This document shows, piece after piece, positions 4,418 to 39,053 of a DNA stretch of 39,053 nucleotides (position 1 is its first letter; every line of letters starts with the position of its first letter). Origin of the DNA: Candidatus Micrarchaeota archaeon (lineage in GTDB: Archaea > Micrarchaeota > Micrarchaeia > Micrarchaeales > CABMGC01). The position numbers and the translations under genes are program-made. The notes beneath the pieces were generated by a model. That model saw only the letters and a list, made by a program, of their open reading frames with translations, was not told the DNA's origin and ran no database searches. Location of the stretch: NCBI GenBank assembly GCA_021809925.1, contig JAJZJV010000003.1:1-39053 (forward strand), given 5' to 3'.

Positions 4418-5587
4418 TCACATGCTAAATATCGGCCTCGAAGACCTCATTATATTCAGGAATATTACCTGAAGGAATATTATACCTACTAGCGCAAGCA
4501 GCAGGATGGTGCCATTAATTGTTATTATGCTTATGAACGTTGTCAGTATTGCAGCAACAGCTATTCCCATGCTTGGGAATATGACTCCGAAAAGCATGTA
4601 GAACATGGCGAGAGCATTGAGCCTCTGCCCATACCTTCTCAATTCTATAACCCTGTCTGATGTCACTTCCTGCACAACTTCCTGCAGTGATCCTATTATG
4701 TCTGCCCCTGCCTTTATGCTGACGCTTGCCTGGAGCATCAATCTCTTGAAGGTCTTTGACTGGGACTTTGCGCTGATCTCGTCCATTGCCTGCTCTATCG
4801 GCATTCCAAGCTGCACAAGCTCGACTACCCTCGCAAATTCCCTGCTCGCAGCCCCATATCCTGTGCTCACAGAGACTATTGCATTGTAAAAAGGCATTCC
4901 GGACCGCATGCTTATTACGATATCTCTCGCAGCAAAGAGAATATCTCTCTCAACCTCCTTGCCGGCTACCTTTGTCCTTGACTTAGGGTATGTCAAGAAC
5001 TTGTTAAATCCTGCAAAGTATGCAGCAAAGCCCACTAAAGGCCCAAGTATAACAAGCCGAGGCTCAATATTGATCATTATTATGGCCATCACTACAGCTA
5101 CTATAACCGCAAGGATCAAAGCGTAAATCATCATCTTTTTGACAAATTGATAGGGAGTTGTCTTCATTCCTGCTTCTATCAAAGATGATTCAAGCCCCTT
5201 CTGCTTTGAAGCCGTCCTCTCTATATATATCTTCATTCCCGAAGGCCTCGCACCTCCCTTCTTTTTGCCTGAGCTCTCGGATTTTATCTCTTCCTTCAAT
5301 CTGTTGCTTGCGCCCTCAGCTCTTATTCTCTGTTCCTCATTGACTGCCGTCGGTGCATGGGATCTTTCCGGCGGCGTATATTCTGGCGCATTCTCCTGCG
5401 GCGGATTTGCCTCTGTAGTTGGCTGGGGTGCGATTTCTTCCTTGGGCATTGCAAGTCCCATCCCTACAGCCTGTTCCTCAGTGCCATATATTGGCTTTGA
5501 CTTTACTTTGATGAACAAGATCTTCTTTGGCTTTGTGAAGCCTATGATCTTCTTCCCCTTTTCATCTTCTTTCTTCTTTTTCAACAT
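4418..5587 (-). CDS. type II secretion system F-domain membrane platform protein (TadB-like) with a disordered K/E/P-rich N-terminal extension
   Basis: 389-aa ORF. About 150 aa of low-complexity sequence are followed by TM helices, then a T2SSF-like domain (FAARDIVISMRSGMPFYNAI ... SVSIKAGADIIGSL) and further TM helices. Only 3 nt separate it from the next platform gene. Confidence 0.8.
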   Translation of the reverse strand: MLKKKKEDEKGKKIIGFTKPKKILFIKVKSKPIYGTEEQAVGMGLAMPKEEIAPQPTTEANPPQENAPEYTPPERSHAPTAVNEEQRIRAEGASNRLKEEIKSESSGKKKGGARPSGMKIYIERTASKQKGLESSLIEAGMKTTPYQFVKKMMIYALILAVIVAVVMAIIMINIEPRLVILGPLVGFAAYFAGFNKFLTYPKSRTKVAGKEVERDILFAARDIVISMRSGMPFYNAIVSVSTGYGAASREFARVVELVQLGMPIEQAMDEISAKSQSKTFKRLMLQASVSIKAGADIIGSLQEVVQEVTSDRVIELRRYGQRLNALAMFYMLFGVIFPSMGIAVAAILTTFISIITINGTILLLALVGIIFLQVIFLNIMRSSRPIFSM

Positions 5588-5618
5588 CGTTTCACATCAT
5601 CGCTGCAATAATATTTAA

Positions 5619-6305
5619 CTATGCTGGCTTTCCATTCCTCTCACTGAGCATTCTTATCACTTCCGCGAGTTTGCTGTTCCTTGCCTCAAAGAGATTCTTC
5701 TGTATTGGATCAGATGGGGCTTTCTCTCCTCTGGCAATCTTCTCCAAGCCGAAAATCTCGGCTTTCATTATCGAGAGTTCCTCGTCACCGAACATGTACT
5801 CATTCAAGCCATCGCTGATTCCTTGCAGATCAGAGAGCTGATCCTGCAACGAGAGTGATGGAAGAACAAGCTTCTCTCCCTCAGATGCCTCTGCTTTCTT
5901 TGCTGCTTTATGCTCGGGCTTCTCAACCTTTTTAAACGCCTCTGGCTTCTTCGGAAGCGCTTCCGCCACGGGCTTTGCTTGCTTCTTGCCTATTCGCGAA
6001 ACAAGATGCTTTACATCTTCTGCTGCTACCTCAAGCTCCTTGCCAAAATGAGGCCCCTCTCTCACTACTTTCTCTTTTTCTGGTTTTGCATCTCTCTGCA
6101 CCTGCTGCTGTGAAAGCATGCCTACTATACCTCTGCTCTCTACATATCCGATCTTTGCATCCGCCTTGCTGTAATCATATTCTGCTTCATTGAGCCTGCT
6201 CTTGAATATGCTCTCGACATTGATCTCAAAGCCAGCCTGCTTCTCAGCTGATTCTGATTCTTCTATAATCTTAACTGCATCCTCATATTCCATAAATATC
6301 CTCAT
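5619..6305 (-). CDS. hypothetical protein with a K/E/A-rich central linker, pilus-operon member
   Basis: 228-aa ORF whose start overlaps the ATPase stop by 4 nt (ATGA coupling). I recognise no motif in it. Confidence 0.6.
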   Translation of the reverse strand: MRIFMEYEDAVKIIEESESAEKQAGFEINVESIFKSRLNEAEYDYSKADAKIGYVESRGIVGMLSQQQVQRDAKPEKEKVVREGPHFGKELEVAAEDVKHLVSRIGKKQAKPVAEALPKKPEAFKKVEKPEHKAAKKAEASEGEKLVLPSLSLQDQLSDLQGISDGLNEYMFGDEELSIMKAEIFGLEKIARGEKAPSDPIQKNLFEARNSKLAEVIRMLSERNGKPA

Positions 6306-7825
6306 TTCAACAGGTCCGGAGTGTACTGCACATCATCATTAGCTAATTGTATTATCTTGGAAGGATTCTTATAATAATTTGCAACGATAAATCCTGCCTC
6401 ATCAATTCCGAATACCTTATTCTTTATCATCCAGTTTAGTATCTTGGCCTTCTGGTCGAGATCGGCATTTATCTCCTGCGGCGTATATCCTCCGTAAAGC
6501 ATCATGGTCTCGCTAAGCCTTGAGAGTTCTGATACCTGCGCAAAGGAATCGCTCCTAAGGTTCCACCTATACACTATGTTTGCATCGCCGCTCCTCAGAA
6601 TTTCTCCGAATTCGAGAACTCTCCTCATCCCGAGACGCCTATGCCTGAATAGCGAGACTACCCCTCCTATCGAATTAAGCATGACCTTTGGAATGTCTAT
6701 TGGCGGGTTAGTCATTCTTATTATTGTATCCTGGGCGTTATCTGCGTGCACAGTGCCATACACCGCGTGTCCTGTGTGTATAGCTTCGAAGAGCGTCTCA
6801 GCATCGCTCTTAGTCCTTACCTCTCCTACAAGCACTATATCGGGCCTCTGCCTTAGTGCATTTATCATCAAGTTATAAAGTGTGATCTCTCCTTTTCCTT
6901 CAGGGTTCGGCTGCCTGGTTAGCATTGGCACCCACTGCAGGAATTCAGGTAGGGTAAGTTCTCTAGTTTCTTCTACAGAGATGACCCTATGGTTTGCTGG
7001 CATGAACATGCTCAGAGCATTGAGAAAGCTTGTCTTTCCACTCGCAGTTCCTCCTGATATCAAAATGCTTATATCACTCTGTATGCAGAGCCATATCAGT
7101 GCGGCAAGCTTGTCGGATATCGTCTTCTGGTCGATAAGCGCTGTCATGGTCCAAGGATTCTTGGAGAACTTCCTTATCGTGATCGTGTTTCCCTTCTGGG
7201 AGACTGGCTTGAGTGTTGCATTTACTCTCGATCCATCTGGGAGCTCTGCATCCATGAGTGGCTGCAGGTTCGATATCTGCCTTCCTACCCTTCTTCCTAT
7301 CTGCTCAGCATCATCATATATTATCATCTCATTCTGAAGCTTGACTGTTGTCTTGCACCACCCATATTTCTTGTGGAAGACCCACACAAACTCGCTTGCG
7401 TTGTTCACTGCTATCTCTTCAAGGTTGTCGTCTGCAAGCAATGGCTCAAGATCACCAAGCCCAAGCATGGTGTTGATTATGTATGAAACAAGAACCTTCT
7501 TTACATTCTCCGGAGTTCCTGGAAGATATCTGTTTATTACAAGGTTCGATGCGGCAATGTACCTGCTGTGCAGCTCATCTATGTAATCCCTGTCTTCGAC
7601 TCTTCCTGGATCTATGGGGACAAGATTTACGAGCTCCTGCCTCAGAGAGAGCAAAAGCACTCTTGTGGCTTCGCCAAGCCCTGGAACAGTAACCTCATAA
7701 ATAGGTACGAACTCTCCCTTCTCTATAATCGTTATATTTACCTTTAACCCATTTGCATCTAGGCTATATGATTCATGAACCTGGATTGGATTATTCAACT
7801 CTGGGCTCTCAGCAGCCATAAACAT
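6302..7825 (-). CDS. type II/IV secretion system ATPase (archaeal FlaI/TadA/PilB-like)
   Basis: 507-aa ORF. It has a Walker A (SGGTASGKTSFLNAL), a Walker B-like DIVLVGEVR, an Asp box (ISVEETRELT), and a His box (GHAVYGTVHA). Confidence 0.9.
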   Translation of the reverse strand: MFMAAESPELNNPIQVHESYSLDANGLKVNITIIEKGEFVPIYEVTVPGLGEATRVLLLSLRQELVNLVPIDPGRVEDRDYIDELHSRYIAASNLVINRYLPGTPENVKKVLVSYIINTMLGLGDLEPLLADDNLEEIAVNNASEFVWVFHKKYGWCKTTVKLQNEMIIYDDAEQIGRRVGRQISNLQPLMDAELPDGSRVNATLKPVSQKGNTITIRKFSKNPWTMTALIDQKTISDKLAALIWLCIQSDISILISGGTASGKTSFLNALSMFMPANHRVISVEETRELTLPEFLQWVPMLTRQPNPEGKGEITLYNLMINALRQRPDIVLVGEVRTKSDAETLFEAIHTGHAVYGTVHADNAQDTIIRMTNPPIDIPKVMLNSIGGVVSLFRHRRLGMRRVLEFGEILRSGDANIVYRWNLRSDSFAQVSELSRLSETMMLYGGYTPQEINADLDQKAKILNWMIKNKVFGIDEAGFIVANYYKNPSKIIQLANDDVQYTPDLLK

Positions 7826-11690: not shown

Positions 11691-11785
11691 TAGCTCCAGC
11701 CAGATTCGAACTGGCGTCAACGGGTTCAGAACCCGTTATCCTTATATGTCTGCATTGGATGCAGAGACCACTAGACGATGGAGCT
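11691..11785 (-). tRNA. tRNA-Gln (anticodon CUG) with a ~22-nt intron in the D-arm region
   Basis: Reverse complement: AGCUCCA UC GUCU AGUGGU[CUCUGCAUCCAAUGCAGACAUAU]AA GGAU A ACGGG UUCUGAA CCCGU UGAC GCCAG UUCGAAU CUGGC UGGAGCU A. The acceptor stem (7 bp), anticodon stem (5 bp) and T-arm are all perfect. The extra sequence contains a 7-bp hairpin. Confidence 0.85.
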
Positions 11786-27515: not shown

Positions 27516-28594
27516 AATTGCTTTACGCGGATACTTCCGCAGATTCCAGTCGATGCTGCTGGAGGACACCGCTATCAGATTTCGACAGCCATGCAAGTCT
27601 ACCCAGTGACTTCACTGGGTGGCGTACGGCTCAGTAACGCGTGGTCAATCTACCGCAGAGAAGGGGATAACCTTGGGAAACTGAGGACAATACCCTATAG
27701 GCTAAGTGCTCTGGAAGGAGCGTTAGCTTAAAGTGGATGCGAATTGGAGCATTTCAGCTCTGCGATGAGACTGCGTCGGATCAGGCAGATGGCGGGGTAA
27801 CGGCCCACCATACCTTTGACCTGTAGGGGATATGAAAGTATAAGCCCCGAGAAGGGCACTGAGACAAGGGCCCTAGCGCTACGGCGTGCAGCAGGCGCGA
27901 AAACTCCACAATGCGCGAAAGCGTGATGGGGGGAGTCTGAGTGGCACACTTTTAGTGTACCTTTTGCTAAGTCTAGACAGCTTGGCGAATAAGTGCTGGG
28001 TAAGTCCGGTGGCAGCCGCCACGGTAATACCGGCGGCACAAGTGGTGTTCACGATTATTGGGCTTAAAGAGTCCGTAGCTGGCCGAAACCGTCTTATGTG
28101 AAATATTGGTGCTTAACATCAATGCGTGCATAAGATACCTTTCGGCTAGGGAGCGGGAGAGGTCAAGAGTACTCATGGGGTAGGAGTAAAATCTTTTAAT
28201 CCTATGAGGACTACCGGTGGCGAAGGCGCTTGACCAGAACGCATCCGACAGTGAGTGACGAAGGCTAGGAGAACGAATCGGATTAGATACCCGAGTAGCC
28301 CTAGCAGTAAATTATGCAGACTTTAGGTGTTGCGCCTATCACGAATGGGTGCAGTACCGTAGGAAAACTGTTAAGTCTGCCGCCTGGGGAGTACGGCCGC
28401 AAGGTTGAAACTTAAAGCAATTGGCGGGGGAGCACACAAGGGGTGGATGCTACGGTTTAATTGAATTCAACGTCGGGAATATTACCTGGAGCGACGGCAG
28501 GATGATGGTCAGGCTAACGACCTTACCAGACGAGCCGAGAGGTGGTGCATGGCGATCGTCAGTTCGTGGTGTGAACTCTCCGGTTAAGTCCGGT

Positions 28595-29086
28595 ATGCTT
28601 TCGTGTGATTCTATGAAAACAATGCTAAAGCCAAAAATATGTTATATGGTTGGGCTCTTCTCAAAGAACTTGGGAGAGAACAATGCCATAGGGATTAGAA
28701 CCAACCTTAAAGAAGTGGAGGAACGCTTCATAGAGACAGCTATAAAAGAGCTCTCTATAGAACCAAGCAAGATCCTTTTCAGGGATGGAGATGTATTTTT
28801 CTATCACTCAAGGATCTACAAGCAATTTCTTGATATAATCAAGAGAGAGACTAAGATCTTTAAGACCGAAAACGAGCTTTCAAAGAGCTACGTTGCAGGT
28901 CTTTTCGATGCTGCTGGTTCTATTAAAAGAAGCGGAGTCCATATTAAGGGAATGAATCCCAGCGATGAGCTTATGTTAGAGGAGCTCGGAATCCACACGA
29001 ACGGAGGAAGAGTCTTGAACATAAGCAAGTTTTTCATGCTTATGAAGGGCTATAGCATTTTGTTGGAGATAACACGATTGCCCGGT
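28595..29086 (+). other. 16S rRNA intron (insertion near E. coli position ~1092-1096); boundaries +/- ~5 nt
   Basis: The conserved GGTTAAGTCCGG at 28581-28594 only continues as (T)ACGAACGAGACTC at 29087 onward. TCGTGT near the 5' end can pair with ACACGA near the 3' end, and CCGG occurs at both junctions. Confidence 0.75.
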
Positions 29087-29107
29087 TACGAACGAGACTC
29101 TCACTGA
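28613..29107 (+). CDS. intron-encoded LAGLIDADG-family protein, probably catalytically degenerate
   Basis: 164 aa counted from the ATG at 28613. Motif 2 reads YVAGLFDAAGSI and motif 1 reads YMVGLFSKNLGE. The stop lies about 20 nt inside the downstream exon. Confidence 0.7.
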   Translation: MKTMLKPKICYMVGLFSKNLGENNAIGIRTNLKEVEERFIETAIKELSIEPSKILFRDGDVFFYHSRIYKQFLDIIKRETKIFKTENELSKSYVAGLFDAAGSIKRSGVHIKGMNPSDELMLEELGIHTNGGRVLNISKFFMLMKGYSILLEITRLPGYERDSH

Positions 29108-29361
29108 CCGTTGCCAGCAGTCTAGAGATAGACTGGGCACTCAGTTGGGACCGCCTGCGTTTAAGCAGGAGGAAGGAGAGAGCAACGGTACGTCAGTATG
29201 CCCCAAATCTTCAGGGCCACACGCGGCATACAGAGGTTGGTACAATGGGTTGCAACTCAGAGATGGGAAGCTAATCCCCCAAAACCAACCAAAGTTCGGA
29301 TTGAGGATTGAAACTCATCCTCATGAAGCTGGAATCCCTAGTAATCGCTTGTCATCATCGA

Positions 29362-29397
<36 letters not shown>

Positions 29398-29570
29398 TGT
29401 CAAGTCATCCAAATGAGGCTCTAGTGAGGCAGTATCTATGATATTTTCGAACTAGAGTTTCGTAAGGAGGGCTAAGTCATAACAAGGTATCCGTAGGGGA
29501 ACCTGCGGATAGATCACCTCACAAACTTCACTTGAAGTATTGTAACCTAATAATGATTGTGTGCAAAATG

Positions 29571-29628: not shown

Positions 29629-29739
29629 AAATCTTTTATCTCGCAAGAATAGAAAGCTTTTTAAATTTTTCTTAAAAAAAGAGTAATCTTTAAATATGAT
29701 ATTTTACTCTAACATATTACAATTCCTAATGTGATATCA

Positions 29740-31587
29740 ATGAGTAAAGATAATATTATGCGAAATTCAGAGTACCTCAGGGCTCTCGGAAATGCAGTTA
29801 ATACTGAAATAGGCTTTTCAGAAGCCAACGGCAAAAGCCTGAATAGTGTTTCAAAATTTGAACATGGGATGAATGCTCTGAATCAAGCGAGAAATAGGGT
29901 AATTCCATCTCCCTCACAGACTATAAATACAACTGCATCTGGCGAAGGCCTGAAGAGTGTTTCAAAATTTGAACAAATGATGAAAGCAATGTCTCCGGCC
30001 GGGATGTATTGGGACTCTGGGGAACTGGTCTGGGTCAGGCCAAATAATACCAACGGTTCTCAGTTTGTTGCAGTCGGAACATTCTTCACAAAGATTGCCA
30101 ACAGCACAACAACACATCTGCACAACTCGGTTACAGTTGCAGAGAATATGGTAAAAGTTGGAACTTCTGTGGTTGTAGGGAATGTAAGCAATGCAATATC
30201 ATTCGCATCAAGCCTGGCTGGCAATGCTTATACGGTGACATCTGGCAAGATACATGGCGCTTATTCGTCTGCTGTATCATTTGGCTCTGATACATGGAAA
30301 AGAGCCTCAGACAATACGGTAGCTGCTTACTCACATGCAGTAAATACAGCCACGCATGCAACAAATTCGGTAAATAAAGCAGCAAAGGATGCTGCTTCTG
30401 TTTCTGGAAGTACGTACTCTGATATCGTTAATATCGGAAAGATTTCCTTCAAAACAACAGCGTCCATTGCATCGAGTACATATTACTCTACAGTTTCATC
30501 AAGCTCCGCAGGATGGAAGTATGTGTCTAACTCTGCTTCTGCAGCATACGGAAACATCTCCGCACATGTGCAAAGCGCATCCGACAAAGTAAGGACGAGT
30601 GCCATTGCGATAGCAGCAAAGGCAGCAGCAATATCCTCTGCAGCATCTCTCGGGACGGCAAGCCACTACACTCAAGCGAATGCATGGATCGGAAGTGCTG
30701 CGAAGAGCACACAGTCAAAGGCAGCGGGAGCATACGCAAACGTAGCAGGAGAGGCAGCCAAAGCAGTTGAATACGCCTCTTCACAGATAAATTATGCACG
30801 CACTACCTCCGCAAAGAGCGCGAAATCTGCAGCAAATGCTGTAGCAAGCATTCATGGAAATGTTGCACAGTTTGTAAGCAGAGATGTTAAACGGATGCGT
30901 GAGGAACTTTTAGAATCTCACACACGCACTTCAGAAGCAAGGCGAAGAACTAGAATAGCATCTTCCATAGTAAGAGGGAAAATTCAGGGATATGTGGACA
31001 TGGAAGGGAAGAGCATTCATTTTGTCCATCCATCATTTGGGAGTATTTCAGGCACTATCATTTCTACAGAGGATGGCCGTACGGCAATATCTTTATCTGA
31101 AAGCCAATCAACAGCCGCCACTGGAAGGCAACCATCAACAATCGCTTCGGCTTACGATGCAGCCAAAGCTGCAGTCTCTGCAGCTCCGGGCTTCTTCTCA
31201 AAGGTTCAGGCAAGCGTTGCAGCATCTGTAACAAAAACAATAAAGGGTGTTTCATCAACATTGGAAGAGGTTGCAAAGGCAAATATGATGCCTTTCCCAC
31301 CCGATTCGAGCACAGCTGAGAAGCAGCCTCAACTAAAGGCCGTGCCACCGAAGGTCTCAGAATCAGATAAGATAAAGCAGGAGATCAGGACTCTAAGGAG
31401 CTCAACTCCTGAAAAATCGCCAAATGGCAGATTCGGTACAAGGACTGAGCGTCATCAAGCAGAAAAAATGGGCGCAGAATTAGAAGTCCTAGAAGCAAGG
31501 CTCGCAAGGATGGATGCTCTTTCCAGCGCAGCAAGAAGAAGCGCAGAAAGTGCGGTAAGGAAGCAGCCACAGAGATTAAGAGCCTAG
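29740..31587 (+). CDS. Ala/Ser/Thr-rich repeat protein with a basic coiled-coil C-terminus, function unknown
   Basis: A long ORF of 615 aa from the ATG at 29740. It has an N-terminal duplicated SVSKFE(H/Q)(G/M)M module. The core has AY(S/G/A) or TY(S/Y) recurring every ~11-25 residues. The tail reads AELEVLEARLARMDALSSAARRSAESA. No TM helix or signal peptide is seen. Confidence 0.65.
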   Translation: MSKDNIMRNSEYLRALGNAVNTEIGFSEANGKSLNSVSKFEHGMNALNQARNRVIPSPSQTINTTASGEGLKSVSKFEQMMKAMSPAGMYWDSGELVWVRPNNTNGSQFVAVGTFFTKIANSTTTHLHNSVTVAENMVKVGTSVVVGNVSNAISFASSLAGNAYTVTSGKIHGAYSSAVSFGSDTWKRASDNTVAAYSHAVNTATHATNSVNKAAKDAASVSGSTYSDIVNIGKISFKTTASIASSTYYSTVSSSSAGWKYVSNSASAAYGNISAHVQSASDKVRTSAIAIAAKAAAISSAASLGTASHYTQANAWIGSAAKSTQSKAAGAYANVAGEAAKAVEYASSQINYARTTSAKSAKSAANAVASIHGNVAQFVSRDVKRMREELLESHTRTSEARRRTRIASSIVRGKIQGYVDMEGKSIHFVHPSFGSISGTIISTEDGRTAISLSESQSTAATGRQPSTIASAYDAAKAAVSAAPGFFSKVQASVAASVTKTIKGVSSTLEEVAKANMMPFPPDSSTAEKQPQLKAVPPKVSESDKIKQEIRTLRSSTPEKSPNGRFGTRTERHQAEKMGAELEVLEARLARMDALSSAARRSAESAVRKQPQRLRA

Positions 31588-32300: not shown

Positions 32301-32645
32301 GTGGCGCAAGTCGATGGGGTTGTTGTAAGGCGAAATATTTTGGATAGGCTTGTCTTTCCAAGTGTTGCTCGTTCGTCCGATGTGGTTCTTAGAAGCAACA
32401 GTGACCTCAGGGCATTGCATAGGGATTCGTTGCAAGCTCAAACGCTTGGGGAATTCCTTGGTCTTGGAACATCTATAATAGGCGCAGCTGCACTCTATTC
32501 GCATATAAATACTACAAAAGATATTTTCGGATCGCTTTTTGCTGCGGCTGGAGTAACCTCCCTTTTCATAGCATTATATGCTGCAAAGAGAGACAAGAAG
32601 ATATCACTTCTTTTAAAAGAAAATACTAATAGTGGCGTGCCGTAG
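32301..32645 (+). CDS. hypothetical small membrane protein (GTG start); its 3' end runs into the orphan RNase P repeat
   Basis: 114-aa ORF with two hydrophobic segments (LGLGTSIIGAAALY and LFAAAGVTSLFIALYAA). The start is weak and the last 5 codons lie inside the repeat. Confidence 0.3.
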   Translation: MAQVDGVVVRRNILDRLVFPSVARSSDVVLRSNSDLRALHRDSLQAQTLGEFLGLGTSIIGAAALYSHINTTKDIFGSLFAAAGVTSLFIALYAAKRDKKISLLLKENTNSGVP

Positions 32646-32695
32646 CCCCTCTTCTGTTTTAGGCGACATTAGACTCAGCGGCATTTTGCCTTGCA
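32631..32695. repeat. 65-bp direct repeat, copy 1 (orphan duplicate of the 3' end of RNase P RNA)
   Basis: 63/65 identical to 34360-34424. The differences are C/T at 32664 vs 34393 and C/T at 32676 vs 34405. Confidence 0.9.
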
Positions 32696-32696
32696 A

Positions 32697-33458
32697 CTAA
32701 AGCATCTCTATAAATGCCTTTATGTCTTTCAGCATCATTCTGGCATCTGGCTGGTTAGTAACATCCACATACTTCTTATCATAATATTCTACATTCGCCA
32801 GCATGCCTACCATCTGGCGATCGGAATATGCAATTATGTCTTTTATTCCCCTTATCTTCGCTATGCCATTCATATAATTAACATATTTTCTCTTGTTTGT
32901 CAATAATCTAAAGCCAATCCAAGTATCATATATATCTTTAAGTTCATTTCTGTCCAACATAGCAAGGGTCTTCTCTGCCATAAGGTATTCGATACTATAT
33001 GATGGAACTATGATTGGCGGCACCAATTGACCATAATAATAAAGTAAGTCTACAAGCTGAAGCTTCTCCGGTTCTTCAAAGATCTTCTCTGTAGGCACAA
33101 GGTCCAAAACTATCTCTTTATATGTCATTCTGGCAGAGGTTACTTTTCTTCCAGGGAAAGCTCCACTAAAGGTCATCTTTGCCCCAATCTTCTTAAGCAC
33201 TCTCAATGTCTTCTGATAAGAATACACAAAAATATCCAAATCATACGATAGACGCTGCTTCTTTCCAAAATATATCTTGTTAAGCGCAGTGCCTCCAAAC
33301 AAGCCAACCCTGCATCCTTCTTTCTCTAGCATTGGGAATATTTCACCCATGGCTTCGTATGTAGCTAAGCTTTTTCTAACCTTAGTCGCATCTATTCCCA
33401 GTTTTATTGCTAATTCGTTGAGATCTATATCATATTGCATTAAACCACTGCCTGACAT
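32697..33458 (-). CDS. AbiEii/AbiGii-family nucleotidyltransferase toxin (type IV TA)
   Basis: 253-aa ORF with LFGGTALNKIYFGKKQRLSYDLDIFVY (GGTAL ... R.S.DlD), a signature of the AbiEii/DUF1814 family. Confidence 0.8.
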   Translation of the reverse strand: MSGSGLMQYDIDLNELAIKLGIDATKVRKSLATYEAMGEIFPMLEKEGCRVGLFGGTALNKIYFGKKQRLSYDLDIFVYSYQKTLRVLKKIGAKMTFSGAFPGRKVTSARMTYKEIVLDLVPTEKIFEEPEKLQLVDLLYYYGQLVPPIIVPSYSIEYLMAEKTLAMLDRNELKDIYDTWIGFRLLTNKRKYVNYMNGIAKIRGIKDIIAYSDRQMVGMLANVEYYDKKYVDVTNQPDARMMLKDIKAFIEML

Positions 33459-34167
33459 TGATGCTATCGTATATCTCCCATCTTGAATTATAATTTATAT
33501 TTTTATGTTTAAAAAAATATGATATCCTAGAGCCTTCTCTGCTAAGTTTATACAATCTCTTTAAGAACCATGCTGGAGCCAATCCTTCCAATGCGTACCC
33601 TATCCTGCGAATATCTGTAAGGCTAGAATCCATTGCATAATAAAGCAACTCTTTCCACTCTTTTTTAGTAAGCTTTCTCTCGTTCAATGCCCTATACATA
33701 TCAAAATAATTCGCGTATTTTGGCACTGAAAGTATATCAAAGATGGTTTTTGGGTACGTAGATACTAATATCTCATCTCCCTCTACAAGTATGAATTCTG
33801 CACCGTATTGCTGCTTTGACACATTTACCGGAATTATTATTCTGCCTAATACTCTTCGTTTTTTCTTATGTGCGGATGTGCATACATAGATTTCACTACT
33901 TACCTCTGTTTTAAGGCTGTGCAGGTAAAGTGCCGAGGAAAAGCCAATGTAACCCTTATACAAATAAATCCCTATGTAAAATATATTCGCTGTCTTGGAA
34001 TAAATACTTTTAGATATCTTGAAAAGTTTACCTGTTTTTAACAAATTTTTAATCCTATAATTTATCTTTCTCTTGCTAACTCTCCCATGGGTTATTCTAA
34101 CTATCTCTCTTGTCTTAAAGACCTGTGGCAAATCTTCTATGTTGATAATTCTATCCATATGGAACAC
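33430..34167 (-). CDS. AbiEi-family antitoxin/transcriptional regulator
   Basis: 245-aa ORF. It has an N-terminal wHTH (IKNLLKTGKLFKISKSIYS), then GYIGFSSALYLHSL, PKTIFDIL and IRRIGYALEGL. It overlaps the toxin start by 29 nt. Confidence 0.75.
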   Translation of the reverse strand: MFHMDRIINIEDLPQVFKTREIVRITHGRVSKRKINYRIKNLLKTGKLFKISKSIYSKTANIFYIGIYLYKGYIGFSSALYLHSLKTEVSSEIYVCTSAHKKKRRVLGRIIIPVNVSKQQYGAEFILVEGDEILVSTYPKTIFDILSVPKYANYFDMYRALNERKLTKKEWKELLYYAMDSSLTDIRRIGYALEGLAPAWFLKRLYKLSREGSRISYFFKHKNINYNSRWEIYDSINVRQWFNAI

Positions 34168-34359
34168 TTTATGTATCCAAAATAAAATTTATCAACAGAT
34201 ATAAAAAGGTTTCGCATGTTGAGGTTTTGAGACTTTATTCATTTCTTTCGGCATATTTCGATTTAACAGTTATCAAATCTACAAATATTATTCCATCAGC
34301 CGATTTTGTCTCAAAGCCGCGTGTTGATCTGTAAAGACCTTCCAAACAAGCTACTTCTC

Positions 34360-34424
34360 AGTGGCGTGCCGTAGCCCCTCTTCTGTTTTAGGTGACATTA
34401 GACTTAGCGGCATTTTGCCTTGCA
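34360..34424. repeat. 65-bp direct repeat, copy 2 (the 3' end of the intact RNase P RNA gene)
   Basis: See copy 1. This copy is contiguous with the rest of the RNA gene. Confidence 0.9.
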
Positions 34425-34594
34425 TGCTCACTGTATGCGCACCGGCGCGTTTCATCCACACCCGAAGGCTCGTAGTGTCATAGCTTATCTTCGGCAGCGG
34501 TCTCGTTTCTGTTCCGGATAAGGCCTTAAGCCGTACATACTCTGCATGGAGAGAGCTTCCTCAGCCCGAAGGCCGTCGGTCACCCGCACGCCAC
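34360..34594 (-). ncRNA. rnpB: RNase P RNA, compact (~235 nt)
   Basis: A GC-rich island in AT-rich DNA. On the minus strand: P1 is AGUGGCGUGC/GCACGCCACU (10 bp), P2 is GGUGAC/GUCACC, and P3 is CGGCC-UUCG-GGCUG. A CR-I-like GAGGAAGCUCUCU sits at 34553-34562 and a CR-V-like ACAGAAGAGGGGCUA at 34372-34386. Together these form a P4 helix of 8 bp with a single bulged U. Confidence 0.7.
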
Positions 34595-34629
34595 TATTAT
34601 TATATTACTTATCCTACTATTTAATTATT

Positions 34630-34943: not shown

Positions 34944-36560
34944 TCAGTATAATGCCTGACTTCCCTTCCCGCTCGGCCTTGTGAACGATATTATAACTGC
35001 AATAAAGACCAAAGCTGCGAAGATTATGAATATACTATGGAATGCCGACATGAATGTAAGCCACTTGCTTTGGTAAGCTGCGGAATTTACCACGCTCGAT
35101 GGAAGGTTGCTAGTAGTGCCAACGAAGAGCGTCACAAAGCTAGATATGTTAACCGTGGATCCTATGAAGACAAAAGCTATCGTCATACTAAGCATCATTG
35201 CGACATTCATCAGTGTTGAGTTTATTGCAGATCCTACTCCCCTTTGATGTGGCTCAACGCTGCTCATTATCGATGATACATTTGGCGATGCAAATAAGCC
35301 TCCGCCTATCCCAGCAAGCAGCATCACTGTAAGAAGTAAGTAGTAGGATGCGGTTTCTGGAAGGAATATTAGTATCAGCAATGATGCCAACGATAATATC
35401 AAGCCCAAGGTTGTCAGAACCCTGTATCCGTGCCTATCTGATAATATCCCGCTTATCGGTCCAACAACAAGGAATCCAAGGCTTAATGGTATTAGCATAA
35501 GGCCAGCATTCAGCGCACTAAATCCTTTCACTCCTTCAAGGAAGAAGACAAGAAGGAACATAACTCCACCCCTCCCAACAGCATTGAATGCGCTTGAAAG
35601 AACGCCTGCAGAGTATAATCTGTGCTTAAAGAGCTCAAATTTTATTATCGGTTGCTTAGCAAATCTTATCTCATTTATCAGGAGCGCTGCAAGCAAAAGT
35701 ATGAATCCTATCCCAGCAATGTAACTATATCCTAGATACGGGTAGAACGAGGCCTTGAATGCTCCTGAAGCATGAGCTCCCATAGATCCCAATGTATAAA
35801 ATGTAGCAGCTAGCAACAATGTCGATATTGTCAATACTAGAAGTATCGTTCCTGATATATCAAGCCTTTGGTCTGGTTTTATCTGTGATACTTCGTGTAG
35901 CATCATGTATGCCCAGACTGTGGCTATTATCCCAACAGGCACATTTATCATAAAGATCCATCTCCATGAATAAAATGAGGTTATGATTCCTCCAAGAACA
36001 AGCCCAAGGACGCTTCCTCCAACCATTGCTACCATATTGGTCCCAAGAGCCATACCTCTCTCCTTCTGTGGAAATACCTCTGTTAATATTGCAGCAGTGT
36101 TTGACCACATCATAGCAGCTCCAATTCCTTGAAGCAGCCTAAATATTATCAGCTGTAACCCCTCGGTGATCCATCCGTTCGGTATTATAATTGAGGATAG
36201 TCCAGCAAAGAATGATCCTACTGTAAAGACTGCAAATCCAAGCTTGTATATCTTCACCCTCCCGAACATGTCCGCAAGCCTTCCAAAGAACAGGAGAAGT
36301 GTTGCTATTATTAGCATGTAGCCCATCAAGACCCATATCAGGTATGCGAAGCTTGTAGCTGTGGCTGTCTGATATGCAAGGGTCGAAGCAGCAGCGCTTC
36401 CTCCTGGTATGTGCAAGAGAATGCTCTTCAAGATGAAAGGCAATGATATTACCACTATGCTGGTATCTATGCCTGCCATCAGCATTCCAAGTGTCGTATT
36501 GGATAATACAATCCACTTGTACCACGGTTTGTCTCTATGGTCTTGTTTCTTAAAGATCAT
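34944..36560 (-). CDS. MFS transporter, 14-TM DHA2 (EmrB/QacA-like) type
   Basis: 538-aa ORF, highly hydrophobic with about 14 helices. It carries the MFS motif GRLADMFGRVKIY between TM2 and TM3. Confidence 0.85.
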   Translation of the reverse strand: MIFKKQDHRDKPWYKWIVLSNTTLGMLMAGIDTSIVVISLPFILKSILLHIPGGSAAASTLAYQTATATSFAYLIWVLMGYMLIIATLLLFFGRLADMFGRVKIYKLGFAVFTVGSFFAGLSSIIIPNGWITEGLQLIIFRLLQGIGAAMMWSNTAAILTEVFPQKERGMALGTNMVAMVGGSVLGLVLGGIITSFYSWRWIFMINVPVGIIATVWAYMMLHEVSQIKPDQRLDISGTILLVLTISTLLLAATFYTLGSMGAHASGAFKASFYPYLGYSYIAGIGFILLLAALLINEIRFAKQPIIKFELFKHRLYSAGVLSSAFNAVGRGGVMFLLVFFLEGVKGFSALNAGLMLIPLSLGFLVVGPISGILSDRHGYRVLTTLGLILSLASLLILIFLPETASYYLLLTVMLLAGIGGGLFASPNVSSIMSSVEPHQRGVGSAINSTLMNVAMMLSMTIAFVFIGSTVNISSFVTLFVGTTSNLPSSVVNSAAYQSKWLTFMSAFHSIFIIFAALVFIAVIISFTRPSGKGSQALY

Positions 36561-38033: not shown

Positions 38034-38071
38034 GTTTAACCATCAGATTCAATATATAAAAATCTTGCTAA

Positions 38072-38140
38072 GTGGCATCCTCCAACGACTAAAGGTCGTT
38101 GGCTTCCAGGGTGGCTATGATTGGTCGTCATTATGCCACC
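38072..38140 (-). ncRNA. structured IS605-type right-end region / candidate omega (re)RNA scaffold of the TnpB gene
   Basis: There is a perfect 8-bp hairpin CCAACGAC-TAAAG-GTCGTTGG (38082-38102). It is enclosed by GTGGCAT (38072-38078) pairing with ATGCCAC (38134-38140). The region straddles the tnpB stop codon. Confidence 0.35.
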
Positions 38141-39053
38141 CGTATAGTTCCTCGTTCAACGAAATCAGCCTTCATTGCTGAAGGACTTACAATATCTCCA
38201 GAGGCGTGGCTTCCCCCTTGTCCAGAGGTAGCTCTTTTTAGTATATTTATGCTTGCATTCAAATCCCTGTCCTTTGACATTCCGCATTTTTGACAGTGGA
38301 ATGTTCTTTCAGACAGAAGCATATCCTGAATGTTTCCGCATTCACTGCACGTCTTTGAGGTATCTTTAGGATTTACACCAACCACTACGCAACCAGCACT
38401 TTCAGCCTTGTATTGTAAATAGTTGATGAAATTACCCCAAGATTCTTCGCCTATACTTCTTGCAAGATGATGATTCTTCATCATATTTGCAACCTTGAGT
38501 TCCTCGTATGCAATGAATGAGTATGAATTGACAAGATTATACGATAGCTTATGAAGCCAGTCTTCTCTTATTCGTGCAGTATGCTCGTATTTCCTTGCGT
38601 AGTTTAGAACTGCCTTTCTTCTCTTATGCGAGCCTTTCTTCCTCCTTGAGATTATTCTTTGAAGCCTTTTGAGTTTGGTTCTGTCCGCCTTTGAGATGTG
38701 TTTATTTTGAATGATTGAGCCATCTGACAGAACTGCATATTTGTTTATGCCCAAGTCCATGCCGACTTTATCTCTGTTGTTTGATATGAATGGATTATCT
38801 TCTTTTTCAACTGCAAGCGCAATATACCACTCCTGCGACTTCGTTTTCTTTATTGTTCCCTCAATCTCTCTGTGGTTCATGAAGTTTACTCTTCCTATTT
38901 TTTAAAGTTCTACTCTCTTCTTTTCAATCTTGAAACCTAATTGTGGATATGTTAATGAAGATACAAACGTTCTATATCTTGGAAACCCAACTTTTACTCT
39001 CTTTCCCTCTTTCTTTTCTTTACACCTTCTGAAGAAATACCTGTAAGCATCAG
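38131..39053 (-). pseudogene. tnpB: IS200/IS605-family TnpB (OrfB) RNA-guided nuclease homolog, with an in-frame TAA and 5' truncation by the window edge
   Basis: RuvC-I: VGMDLGINKYAVLSDG. RuvC-II: IAYEELKVANMMKN. Zn finger: CSECGN...CQKCG. RuvC-III: DRDLNASINIL. The same frame continues upstream (..GFPRYRTFVSSLTYPQLGFKIEKKRVEL*KIGRVNFMNHREIEG) through a TAA at 38902-38904. Confidence 0.8.

Follow-up and report, generated by a model that had tools for sequence, protein, structure and literature searches.

The 3′ end of the gene for RNase P RNA looks like a docking site for tiny integrase-less toxin-antitoxin cassettes in Micrarchaeota

Integration at the 3′ ends of tRNA and tmRNA genes, where tyrosine integrases have their att sites, is textbook knowledge, and sublocation rules for integration within these genes were reportedly laid down by Williams in 2002. 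Integrated elements of the archaeal SSV and pNOB8 types are typically far larger than the insert described below. Integron cassettes, including the toxin-antitoxin (TA) cassettes of chromosomal integrons, and IMEX elements depend on a recombinase provided in trans, which in the case of IMEX is the host Xer. TA systems of the AbiE class are assigned to type IV and were lately proposed as type VII. To our knowledge the gene for RNase P RNA (rnpB) is not a recognised integration target, and very little is known about mobile elements in DPANN archaea; our literature search found no report of integration at rnpB. The archaeal elements that use SSV-type or pNOB8-type integrases encode their own integrase, a gene that is split by integration in the SSV-type elements (PMC7253208, PMC6563490, PMC5861418). 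The AbiE systems used here for comparison are AbiE of Streptococcus agalactiae and MenAT of M. tuberculosis (PMC7450476, PMC10435456, PMC11375011, bioRxiv 10.64898/2026.01.19.700257).

The locus under study lies in a stretch of 39,053 nt (the window) from a Micrarchaeota (DPANN) archaeon with a small genome. Its features, including a terminal 16-nt segment delimited with the help of L031, a strain variant, and L121, a contig of another species, are as follows:

32301..32645, + strand: p114, clade-specific small membrane-like protein, convergent with rnpB; original chromosomal flank
32631..32695, − strand: orphan repeat copy, attL-like, 1 nt past the AbiEii stop codon
32631..32646, − strand: terminal 16-nt core, in RNA sense GCTACGGCACGCCACT, candidate crossover or att core (from L031 and L121)
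32697..33458, − strand: abiEii, DUF1814 nucleotidyltransferase toxin, 253 aa (PF08843, PADLOC)
33430..34158, − strand: abiEi, antitoxin and autoregulator, 242 aa from the ATG at 34158 (PADLOC PDLC02267)
34159..34359, − strand: cassette leader, defined by alignment, with a conserved promoter/operator block
34360..34424, − strand: gene-linked repeat copy, attR-like, the functional rnpB 3′ end (P1 3′, P2 3′, P4/CR-V)
34360..34595, − strand: rnpB, 236-nt archaeal RNase P RNA of the reduced Micrarchaeota type (Rfam RF00373)

A repeat search of the window returned a sole family, the 65-nt direct repeats 32631-32695 and 34360-34424, which are identical at 63 positions and differ by T/C transitions at repeat positions 34 and 46. 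A 33-mer of the repeat has two exact occurrences in the window (shuffles: 0 expected). The RNase P RNA, a candidate in the initial annotation, was confirmed by the RF00373 covariance model (95.8 bits, gathering score 84; E 1.2e-25). This full-model match spans 34360-34595, so that the right copy is exactly the 3′-terminal 65 nt of the RNA and holds, as had been proposed, the 3′ strands of P1 and P2 plus the ACAGAAGAGGGG segment (P4/CR-V). Homologues found in 21 related loci have 233-241 nt and score 89.9-110.5 bits; conservation across species ends exactly at 34360, and the outer limit of the repeat coincides exactly with the RNA 3′ terminus. The concern that the 65-mer might be a dispersed repeat was dispelled by about 40 other Micrarchaeota genomes, each of which has one copy, located in rnpB. 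The 1,664 bp between the copies hold only two real ORFs, the overlapping abiEi and abiEii, and the att-like geometry first read from cassette and repeats is upheld. As in islands at tRNA and tmRNA genes, the direct repeat is the 3′ part of a stable-RNA gene, with identity running up to the 3′ terminus of the RNA and no further; one junction has the gene whole again (an Rfam match over the full length that exceeds the gathering score) and the other an orphan 3′ fragment, and the cargo is AT-rich and foreign in character (GC ~0.35 against 0.40-0.46 in the flanks). Unlike in those islands, the target here is rnpB, there is no integrase, and the insert is a TA pair of 1.1-1.7 kb. The best reading of the rnpB case is integration of the tRNA/tmRNA type in a new form.

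Profile searches settled the identity of the two genes, which had been named from their translations. AbiEii matches Pfam PF08843 (E 3e-14, 54 bits against a cut-off of 22.5) and 16 PADLOC AbiEii models, and its nucleotidyltransferase motifs GG(T)..SYDLD and AEK..DR..KDIYD are invariant across the family alignment. AbiEi is matched by PADLOC PDLC02267 (E 1.2e-25) over profile positions 18-239 of 252; a GTG at 34167 is given as an alternative start in the ORF list, and the family (32 clusters) comprises proteins of 237-247 aa, bar one cluster of 214 aa. The AF2 model of AbiEi (pLDDT 91.3) has AbiEi (6y8q, E 2e-6) and Rv2827c (1zel, E 1.3e-5) as best Foldseek matches, with a probability of 1.0, and the predicted fold together with the PADLOC match points to an N-terminal wHTH followed by a C-terminal domain. 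The structure of AbiEii predicted by single-sequence AF2 (pLDDT 34) was unusable. Both genes lie on the same strand, antitoxin gene first, and overlap by 29 nt, the bicistronic layout of AbiE. This overlapping operon is shared with S. agalactiae AbiE and MenAT, as are, judging from sequence, a DUF1814 nucleotidyltransferase toxin with conserved catalytic motifs and, in the model, an antitoxin with the AbiEi fold (wHTH plus C-terminal domain). Unlike those systems, the cassette belongs to an archaeal subfamily confined to Micrarchaeota-like genomes: its AbiEi has at most 16% identity to solved AbiEi, neither protein gave a meaningful match in sequence and profile searches against the PDB, and toxin activity and RNA substrate are putative.

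The part of the leader next to abiEi (34159-34230) is a block of the form TTTTTATAT-N3-TTGAT-N~20-ACATAAAGTGT-N5-ATG. This TATA/operator block is the cassette's own and is common to paralogous AbiE cassettes at other loci, upstream of which the leader motif is found too. The 32 nt that adjoin rnpB (34328-34359) are conserved; the middle ~105 nt are dispensable and missing in the B clade, and the whole cassette measures 1.66 kb here and 1.56 kb in the sister clade. No flanking repeat of at least 14 nt and no rnpB-like segment was found around five paralogous cassettes at other loci (51-58% identity), so the AbiE family can move without this att. Related AbiE cassettes occupy other convergent gene ends, for example the FtsY/fumarase gap of 14-100 nt. 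The AbiE cassette on contig L021 lies 122 nt past tRNA-Ser(GCT); no tRNA fragment is repeated there.

The same structure is present in at least eight independent assemblies. At the rnpB loci of about 40 other Micrarchaeota species the cassette is absent, synteny on the 5′ side is kept (BofA-histone-GNAT-p208 in homologous loci) and the 3′ flank is different, which identifies the cassette as a real, derived insertion. In its clade it appears to be fixed: all clade contigs that reach far enough past p114 carry it, with the exception of variant L031 (L114 is too short to be called empty or occupied), and the contexts of p114 homologues and of close AbiEi homologues contained no empty site. The metagenome scan yielded four rnpB loci of other species, none with the cassette, and no orphan rnpB fragment was found in other species apart from L121. 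At the junction itself, p114 and rnpB overlap by 15 nt. p114 runs into the orphan copy and takes its end (SGVP-stop, that is its last four codons and the stop codon) from the initial 15 nt there, and any insertion between the two genes must therefore duplicate at least 15 nt.

The two copies have had different histories. The gene-linked copy is identical at all 65 positions in every cassette-bearing lineage (0/65 substitutions), and the two differences between the copies occur in the lineage of the window alone, sister contigs having T/T. One of them falls in P2, where, as the alignment bears out, the gene-linked copy has an A that forms a pair with U, and the G of the orphan would make a G-U wobble. 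This difference had been read as consistent with selection on the linked copy only. The invariance of that copy agrees with this; the claim is incomplete, since the inner part of the orphan (positions 20-65, 32650-32695) is also conserved, with 2 substitution events against 11.3 expected from the synonymous sites of adjacent genes (P = 3e-4), far below the neutral expectation for these 46 nt. The outer positions 1-19 (32631-32649) drift at the neutral rate (6 events, 4.7 expected), and the profile of identity between the W and B clades jumps within the orphan from 63-72% to 89-93%. The orphan may thus also be maintained, by gene conversion or by some function of its own. The region shows no special RNA structure (fold z = −0.16) and no terminator-like hairpin. 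Divergence at fourfold sites between the clades is 0.205 in the cassette (30/146) against 0.50 in both flanks (267/536; Fisher P = 9e-11), so the cassette has a more recent common ancestor than its surroundings. This lower divergence could reflect ordinary allelic recombination between clades that both inherited the insertion.

The site was found to be used a second time, independently, in the other species. After rnpB (99.3 bits), L121 carries a HEPN-MNT pair of 1.09 kb, beyond which lies a copy of the last 16 nt of the gene, matching at 15 of 16 positions. This cassette has a GC content of 0.38 against 0.50-0.56 in the flanks and tight borders (~45 nt and 22 nt); in relatives of L121 the distance from rnpB to the OFOR-beta gene is 300-1000 nt. 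Across 43 unique rnpB loci (310 kb) additional copies of the terminal 16-mer occur only in these two lineages, downstream of the gene and on the same strand, with a chance expectation of 0.08 at up to two mismatches and 0.0035 at up to one; no match was found on the opposite strand. L031, a strain variant of the B clade represented by one short contig from Logan, preserves precisely these 16 nt, beyond which lies unrelated ORFan DNA. The ORF in this tail has no relatives in the genome contigs or in a set of 5.8 billion proteins, and for this reason the variant could not be extended. With a different TA cassette at the same spot in a second species, rnpB seems to be a docking site, not recorded before, for very small mobile cassettes that lack an integrase. 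The repeat has 65 nt in the window and 16 nt in L121, and so the two insertion events need not share one recombinase.

On balance we lean towards the view that a small, non-autonomous TA cassette was inserted at the 3′ end of rnpB in Campbell fashion, probably site-specifically. A DNA circle bearing a copy of this 3′ end would have undergone one reciprocal crossover with the resident one, in or adjoining the last 16-19 nt of the gene, bringing in leader, abiEi and abiEii as a self-promoted unit. Such a crossover would rebuild a complete rnpB at one junction (34360-34424) and leave the displaced 3′ end as the orphan (32631-32695) beside its old downstream neighbour p114. The most likely catalyst would be a site-specific recombinase acting in trans, from the host or from a helper element. 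Once in place the cassette would probably be held by addiction, its loss freeing the stable AbiEii toxin from AbiEi control, and occasional gene conversion from the selected rnpB copy would keep the orphan rnpB-like. As first noted, there is no integrase: Pfam detected no recombinase domain in the cassette or in the ~5 kb to each side of it. The search of viral contigs, genome contigs and the metagenome recovered neither an integrase-bearing element nor an attP-bearing plasmid or virus, and viral contigs scanned with a 27-mer, an 18-mer and the inner 23-mer of the segment gave no real match (the lone hit falls in a coding region of L045 and is due to chance). In the absence of an integrase element, of attP and of an empty site in the clade, the choice between a decayed island and a cassette mobilised in trans, both proposed at the outset, stays inferential.

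The decayed island, in which a once larger island or provirus would have entered the rnpB 3′ end with a tyrosine integrase of its own and been eroded by deletions to the TA pair and its att copies, would account for the classic att geometry. By virtue of addiction, TA modules are the last survivors to be expected from a decaying island; the loss in the B clade of ~105 nt of the W-clade leader shows ongoing deletion, and the ORFan DNA of L031 at the same junction could belong to such an element. We nevertheless hold erosion to be unlikely, given the tight borders (1 nt beyond the stop of AbiEii on one side, 87-192 nt of leader on the other), the lack of pseudogene debris, a second cargo in L121 that consists of a TA pair only, again tightly bordered, and the equally compact form of the same AbiE family elsewhere (promoter and two genes). 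The scans of contigs, viruses and metagenome likewise found no larger relative with this att. A distinctly improbable course would be integrase-free spread, in which host homologous recombination between the two copies releases a 1,729-bp circle that, once transferred, enters a related genome through one homologous crossover at the invariant 3′ end of rnpB, the 65 nt being a homology arm and no recombinase site. It would agree with a segment that is nearly invariant phylum-wide (a 27-mer is identical in 18 species), with a cassette younger than both flanks, with an orphan kept identical to rnpB, which implies that the copies do recombine, and with the lack of a recombinase. It leaves unexplained how the first rnpB segment came to be on the cassette. 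The 16-nt repeat of L121, short for homologous recombination, and the break of L031 at the same 16 nt argue for a fixed crossover rather than one anywhere in the 65 nt, and despite a target present throughout the phylum the AbiE cassette sits at rnpB in one clade only.

No att at all would be needed if illegitimate or microhomology insertion had placed the cassette between p114 and rnpB and repair, such as the fill-in of a staggered break, had produced the 65-nt duplication. The paralogous cassettes at convergent 3′-end junctions without att (the FtsY/fumarase gap) are in line with this, and the 15-nt overlap of p114 and rnpB forces some duplication, which might then have persisted because both genes need their ends. 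Intact p114 and rnpB require 15 nt, however, and not 65; conservation of the orphan's inner 46 nt goes far past the needs of p114, and random repair would not be expected to yield a repeat in L121 that ends at the same nucleotide with different cargo, nor the L031 junction. Both the repair origin and the persistence of its product for that reason are thus hard to credit. There is, finally, the concern that the duplication or the placement of the cassette is a mis-join at a conserved RNA gene. Assemblers do struggle here: two contigs of one MAG (L006 and L018) end inside the orphan copy, and L024 and L115, from one sample, are reciprocal W/B mosaics. L024 was considered as a natural recombinant and set aside, the reciprocal mosaic from the same sample making an assembly cross-join likelier. 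An artefact at the locus as a whole has a negligible probability: at least eight contigs from different samples, assembled by megahit at k141 (longer than the repeat) and by SPAdes, run in the same order through both copies, among them L019, L022, L023, L025, L030, L040 and L115, and the copies carry lineage-specific differences.

To return to insertion by a recombinase in trans, the locus shares with SSV-type and pNOB8-type elements an archaeal host, a specific site and att repeats in an RNA gene, and departs from them in having no integrase fragment and a small-genome DPANN host. With integron cassettes and IMEX it shares small non-autonomous units without a recombinase of their own at one defined site, and, as in integrons, where TA cargo stabilises the array, L121 has two TA pairs in series at the site. 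Unlike in those systems, the site lies inside an essential RNA gene, the cassettes have their own promoters, and in the contigs at hand no attC-like or dif-like site, IntI-like gene or attI is evident. By analogy, the resemblance may describe a possible working mode and not family membership. A broader picture, possible and put forward tentatively, is that AbiE, HEPN-MNT and the L031 DNA are all self-promoted, integrase-less mini-cassettes, inserted by a recombinase in trans and exchanged between lineages, which would make an integron- or IMEX-like system that has its anchor in an essential DPANN ribozyme gene, with the orphan as the cassette's own att.

Should the last segment of rnpB prove to be a genuine att, orphan rnpB ends would offer a sequence handle for the mobile DNA of Micrarchaeota. 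The locus would then also point to a recombinase that serves 1-2 kb cassettes in trans, and provide a natural example of an addictive TA pair locked beside an essential gene. Toxins of the AbiEii family act at RNA 3′ ends, which makes a functional link between the toxin and the stable-RNA 3′ end worth testing. An element with GCTACGGCACRCCAC beside an integrase, if found, would settle the mechanism. Both cargo toxins come from TA systems based on nucleotidyltransferases.

The two segments 32631-32695 and 34360-34424 form a direct repeat with 63 of 65 positions identical. No additional copies are present in the window and none (0) is expected by chance. The Rfam match spans 34360-34595 on the minus strand, so the right copy is the final 65 nt of rnpB; the CR-V/P4 segment and the 3′ strands of helices P1 and P2 fall within it. 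The region is organized as follows:

32301-32645, plus strand (opposite to the abiE genes): small gene p114, whose 3′ end lies within the orphan repeat copy
32631-32695: orphan (left) repeat copy
32697-33458, minus strand: abiEii (Pfam PF08843, E 3e-14)
33430-34158, minus strand: abiEi, 242 aa from the ATG that matches homologues (PADLOC AbiEi, E 1.2e-25)
34360-34424: gene-linked (right) repeat copy, inside rnpB
34360-34595, minus strand: rnpB, archaeal RNase P RNA (full-length Rfam match, 95.8 bits for a gathering score of 84, E 1.2e-25)

The initial annotation had noticed the repeat, its position at the 3′ end of a candidate RNase P RNA and the AbiEi/AbiEii pair; this observation is correct and reflects more than chance, the covariance model and both protein profiles supporting its assignments. 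The two overlapping genes are the only ones found between the repeat copies. The orphan copy begins with 15 nt that encode the final four codons and stop of p114, and one nucleotide separates the AbiEii stop codon from the copy's other end. No recombinase domain was detected in the cassette or in its neighbours p618, p117, p114, BofA-like, MFS, histone, GNAT and p208, in agreement with the earlier statement that no integrase is present. The RNase P RNAs of Micrarchaeota (window 34360-34595 and ~40 related loci) are reduced archaeal ribozymes of only 233-241 nt, with a hairpin of few nucleotides in place of a ~35-nt segment of the Rfam model and a shortened specificity domain.

A 27-mer of the repeat matches 18 species-representative genomes, nearly all labelled Micrarchaeota, and a shorter core identifies 18 further loci; the RNase P RNAs at these related loci score 89.9-110.5 bits. 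Synteny holds throughout the phylum on the 5′ side of rnpB (BofA-like, histone, GNAT, p208); the 3′ side varies from species to species. The cassette and its left flank occur in one clade with two branches, W (the window and contigs L022-L028 and L019) and B (L030, L040, L006+L018), and the insertion is derived. The duplication is not an assembly artefact, since both copies are crossed by eight or more contigs, which come from different samples and assemblers; the structure is real. An MFS transporter gene (window 34944-36560) lies between the BofA-like and histone genes only in the cassette-bearing clade, these two genes being adjacent in other Micrarchaeota. Contigs L024 and L115, both from sample ERZ27237063, are reciprocal W/B-type mosaics with the switch point inside the cassette. 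Being reciprocal and from one sample, they were treated as assembly cross-joins rather than natural recombinants. A single MAG (GCA_021835445.1) also carries W-type and B-type copies of the locus (L026, L040). The two populations therefore occur together, and public data include bins that are cross-joined or mixed.

The gene-linked copy is identical at 65/65 positions in every lineage, while the orphan copy shows private changes only: positions 34 and 46 in the window, 19 in L019, 1-2 in L022-28, 12 and 18 in L030, and 1 in L018/L040. The two substitutions reported in the initial annotation are thus recent and specific to the window lineage. The rate baseline came from the abiE genes next to the orphan, with 34 events in 138 fourfold-degenerate sites across the same five lineages. 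The outer 19 nt of the orphan evolve neutrally (6 events, 4.7 expected). The invariance of the linked copy agrees with the initial annotation's proposal of selection acting only on that copy, but the inner 46 nt of the orphan are also strongly conserved (2 events, 11.3 expected, P = 3e-4), with no fixed W/B differences despite 20% synonymous divergence in the neighbouring gene. The proposal is therefore incomplete. Older orphan changes appear to have been erased, leaving the young private ones. Such a pattern would be expected if the selected rnpB copy periodically overwrote the orphan by gene conversion. Alternatively, the inner part may be conserved for a function as abiE 3′ UTR or as att; the RNA fold of the region shows nothing unusual (z = -0.16).

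The cassette is younger than its surroundings. Divergence at fourfold sites between W and B is 0.50 (267/536) in genes of both flanks but 0.205 (30/146) in abiEi and abiEii combined (Fisher P = 9e-11; Jukes-Cantor distances of 0.82 and 0.24, respectively), and the W/B identity profile jumps from 63-72% to 89-93% within the orphan copy. Either the cassette was transferred between branches after the W/B split or an allelic recombination tract, which would be bounded by the orphan and rnpB, homogenized it.

A second, independent case was found in L121, a contig of another Micrarchaeota species (rnpB, 99.3 bits). A HEPN-MNT toxin-antitoxin pair directly follows rnpB (stored coordinates 5451-6797; oriented 1205-2550): a wHTH-minimal nucleotidyltransferase ~45 nt past the rnpB 3′ end (Pfam Polbeta, E 1.3e-7), then a HEPN protein (E 2.6e-8). 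Located 22 nt past the HEPN stop, GCTACGGCACGCCACA repeats the last 16 nt of L121 rnpB in direct orientation with 15/16 identity, ending exactly at the RNA terminus. It is followed by a VapB/PemK pair and the OFOR-beta gene, a conserved neighbour that lies 300-1000 nt from rnpB in six relatives. Both L121 cassettes have a GC content of 0.38-0.40, compared to 0.50-0.56 in their surroundings. A controlled scan covered 43 unique rnpB loci (310 kb), each of which was searched for additional copies of its own terminal 16-mer. Matches occurred downstream on the same strand only, and in the window's clade and L121 only (chance expectation 0.08 at up to two mismatches, 0.0035 at up to one); no opposite-strand copies were found in the 43 loci. 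Contig L031 represents a strain variant of the B branch, and its p114 protein is the one encoded by L030. It matches B-branch contigs at 98.4-99.7% identity through exactly the first 16 nt of the orphan, inclusive, and then continues into unrelated DNA encoding the ORFan MSFLDTLVTAGFTKEEAKSL..., without relatives in any collection searched. This junction (L031:2611-2901) could reflect a rearrangement, a chimera or another element inserted at the same att. Three features thus point to the last 16-19 nt of rnpB: the repeat in L121, the junction in L031 and the boundary between the neutral and conserved parts of the orphan.

The earlier reading of the geometry and of rnpB as target is largely right. 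The case is best read as integration at a stable-RNA gene with a new target, rnpB, in a DPANN host and with a minimal cargo lacking an integrase. Our literature search found no paper in which rnpB is described as a target of integration; the L121 instance makes a dedicated att site there plausible. In the simplest account, one reciprocal crossover joined a circular DNA, which carried a mimic of the rnpB end, to the chromosomal rnpB 3′ end. The orphan part adjoining p114 would then be the displaced original gene end, free to drift, and the part adjoining abiEii would have been brought by the element. The 3′ tip of the present rnpB would likewise be element-derived, and kept by selection on P1. 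That the site recurs with different cargo and a common boundary speaks for a site-specific recombinase acting in trans. Live alternatives are homologous recombination alone and decay of a larger island. Searches retrieved no larger element with the same att, no viral or plasmid contig bearing an attP and, within the cassette-bearing clade, no empty site. Insertion with accidental duplication is less likely.

The AlphaFold model of AbiEi (pLDDT 91.3) has S. agalactiae AbiEi (6y8q) and Rv2827c (1zel) as top PDB folds, and the nucleotidyltransferase motifs of AbiEii are invariant throughout the family. AbiEi homologues form 32 clusters of 214-247 aa (all except one 237-247 aa), whose named sources are Micrarchaeota or Marsarchaeota. 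Five AbiE cassettes, 51-58% identical, occupy unrelated loci: NifU/PGI, fumarase/FtsY, beside a 23S rRNA gene and a PIN toxin-antitoxin pair, a glycosyltransferase island, and after tRNA-Ser. All five are lone pairs and carry the upstream TATA/TTGAT/ACAWAAAGTGT block shared by every cassette of the family, of the form TTTTTATAT-N3-TTGAT-N~20-ACAWAAAGTGT-N5-ATG (window 34159-34230; L021, L032, L034, L036, L038), probably a TATA box and AbiEi operator. The family is therefore made up of compact, self-promoted gene pairs that land at convergent gene ends. The fumarase/FtsY cassette occupies a convergent gap that measures 14-100 nt in at least six relatives. The five cassettes have no integrase within 7 kb and no flanking repeat of at least 14 nt; a long target repeat accompanies the family only at rnpB. 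Toxins of the AbiEii family act as nucleotidyltransferases, adding nucleotides to tRNA 3′ ends, and their control by the antitoxin has been demonstrated in bacteria (PMC7450476, PMC10435456, bioRxiv 10.64898/2026.01.19.700257). Toxin-antitoxin addiction plausibly helps to retain the cassette. The 51%-identical cassette L021:1083-2761 lies on the strand of tRNA-Ser(GCT) and begins 122 nt past its 3′ end, with no tRNA fragment repeated. Class II tRNAs such as tRNA-Ser are preferred by bacterial AbiEii and MenT3, so this location could be a hint, or coincidence.

Other features of the window were recorded. ARAGORN identified zero tRNAs in the whole 39 kb; a weak match at 11691-11751 on the minus strand (31.7 bits, no D-arm, three acceptor-stem mismatches) may be a degenerate tRNA fragment. 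The 16S rRNA gene (27543-29522) spans 1,980 nt for a 1,478-nt model and therefore contains an insertion of ~500 nt; a 228-aa ORF without Pfam match (28421-29107) overlaps the gene. A possible explanation for the extra segment is an rRNA intron or insertion, a feature common in DPANN. A 249-aa TnpB/IS605 OrfB-like gene (38131-38880, minus strand; Pfam OrfB_IS605 and Cas12f1-like TNB domain) lies in a segment (38071-39053) missing from L022 and L023, two near-identical contigs in which ThiI comes after p208; it is a strain-specific IS insertion. The long Ala/Ser-rich protein p618 (29731-31587), without Pfam match, is very fast-evolving, with ~70% amino acid identity between strains that share 97-99% identity in the neighbouring genes.
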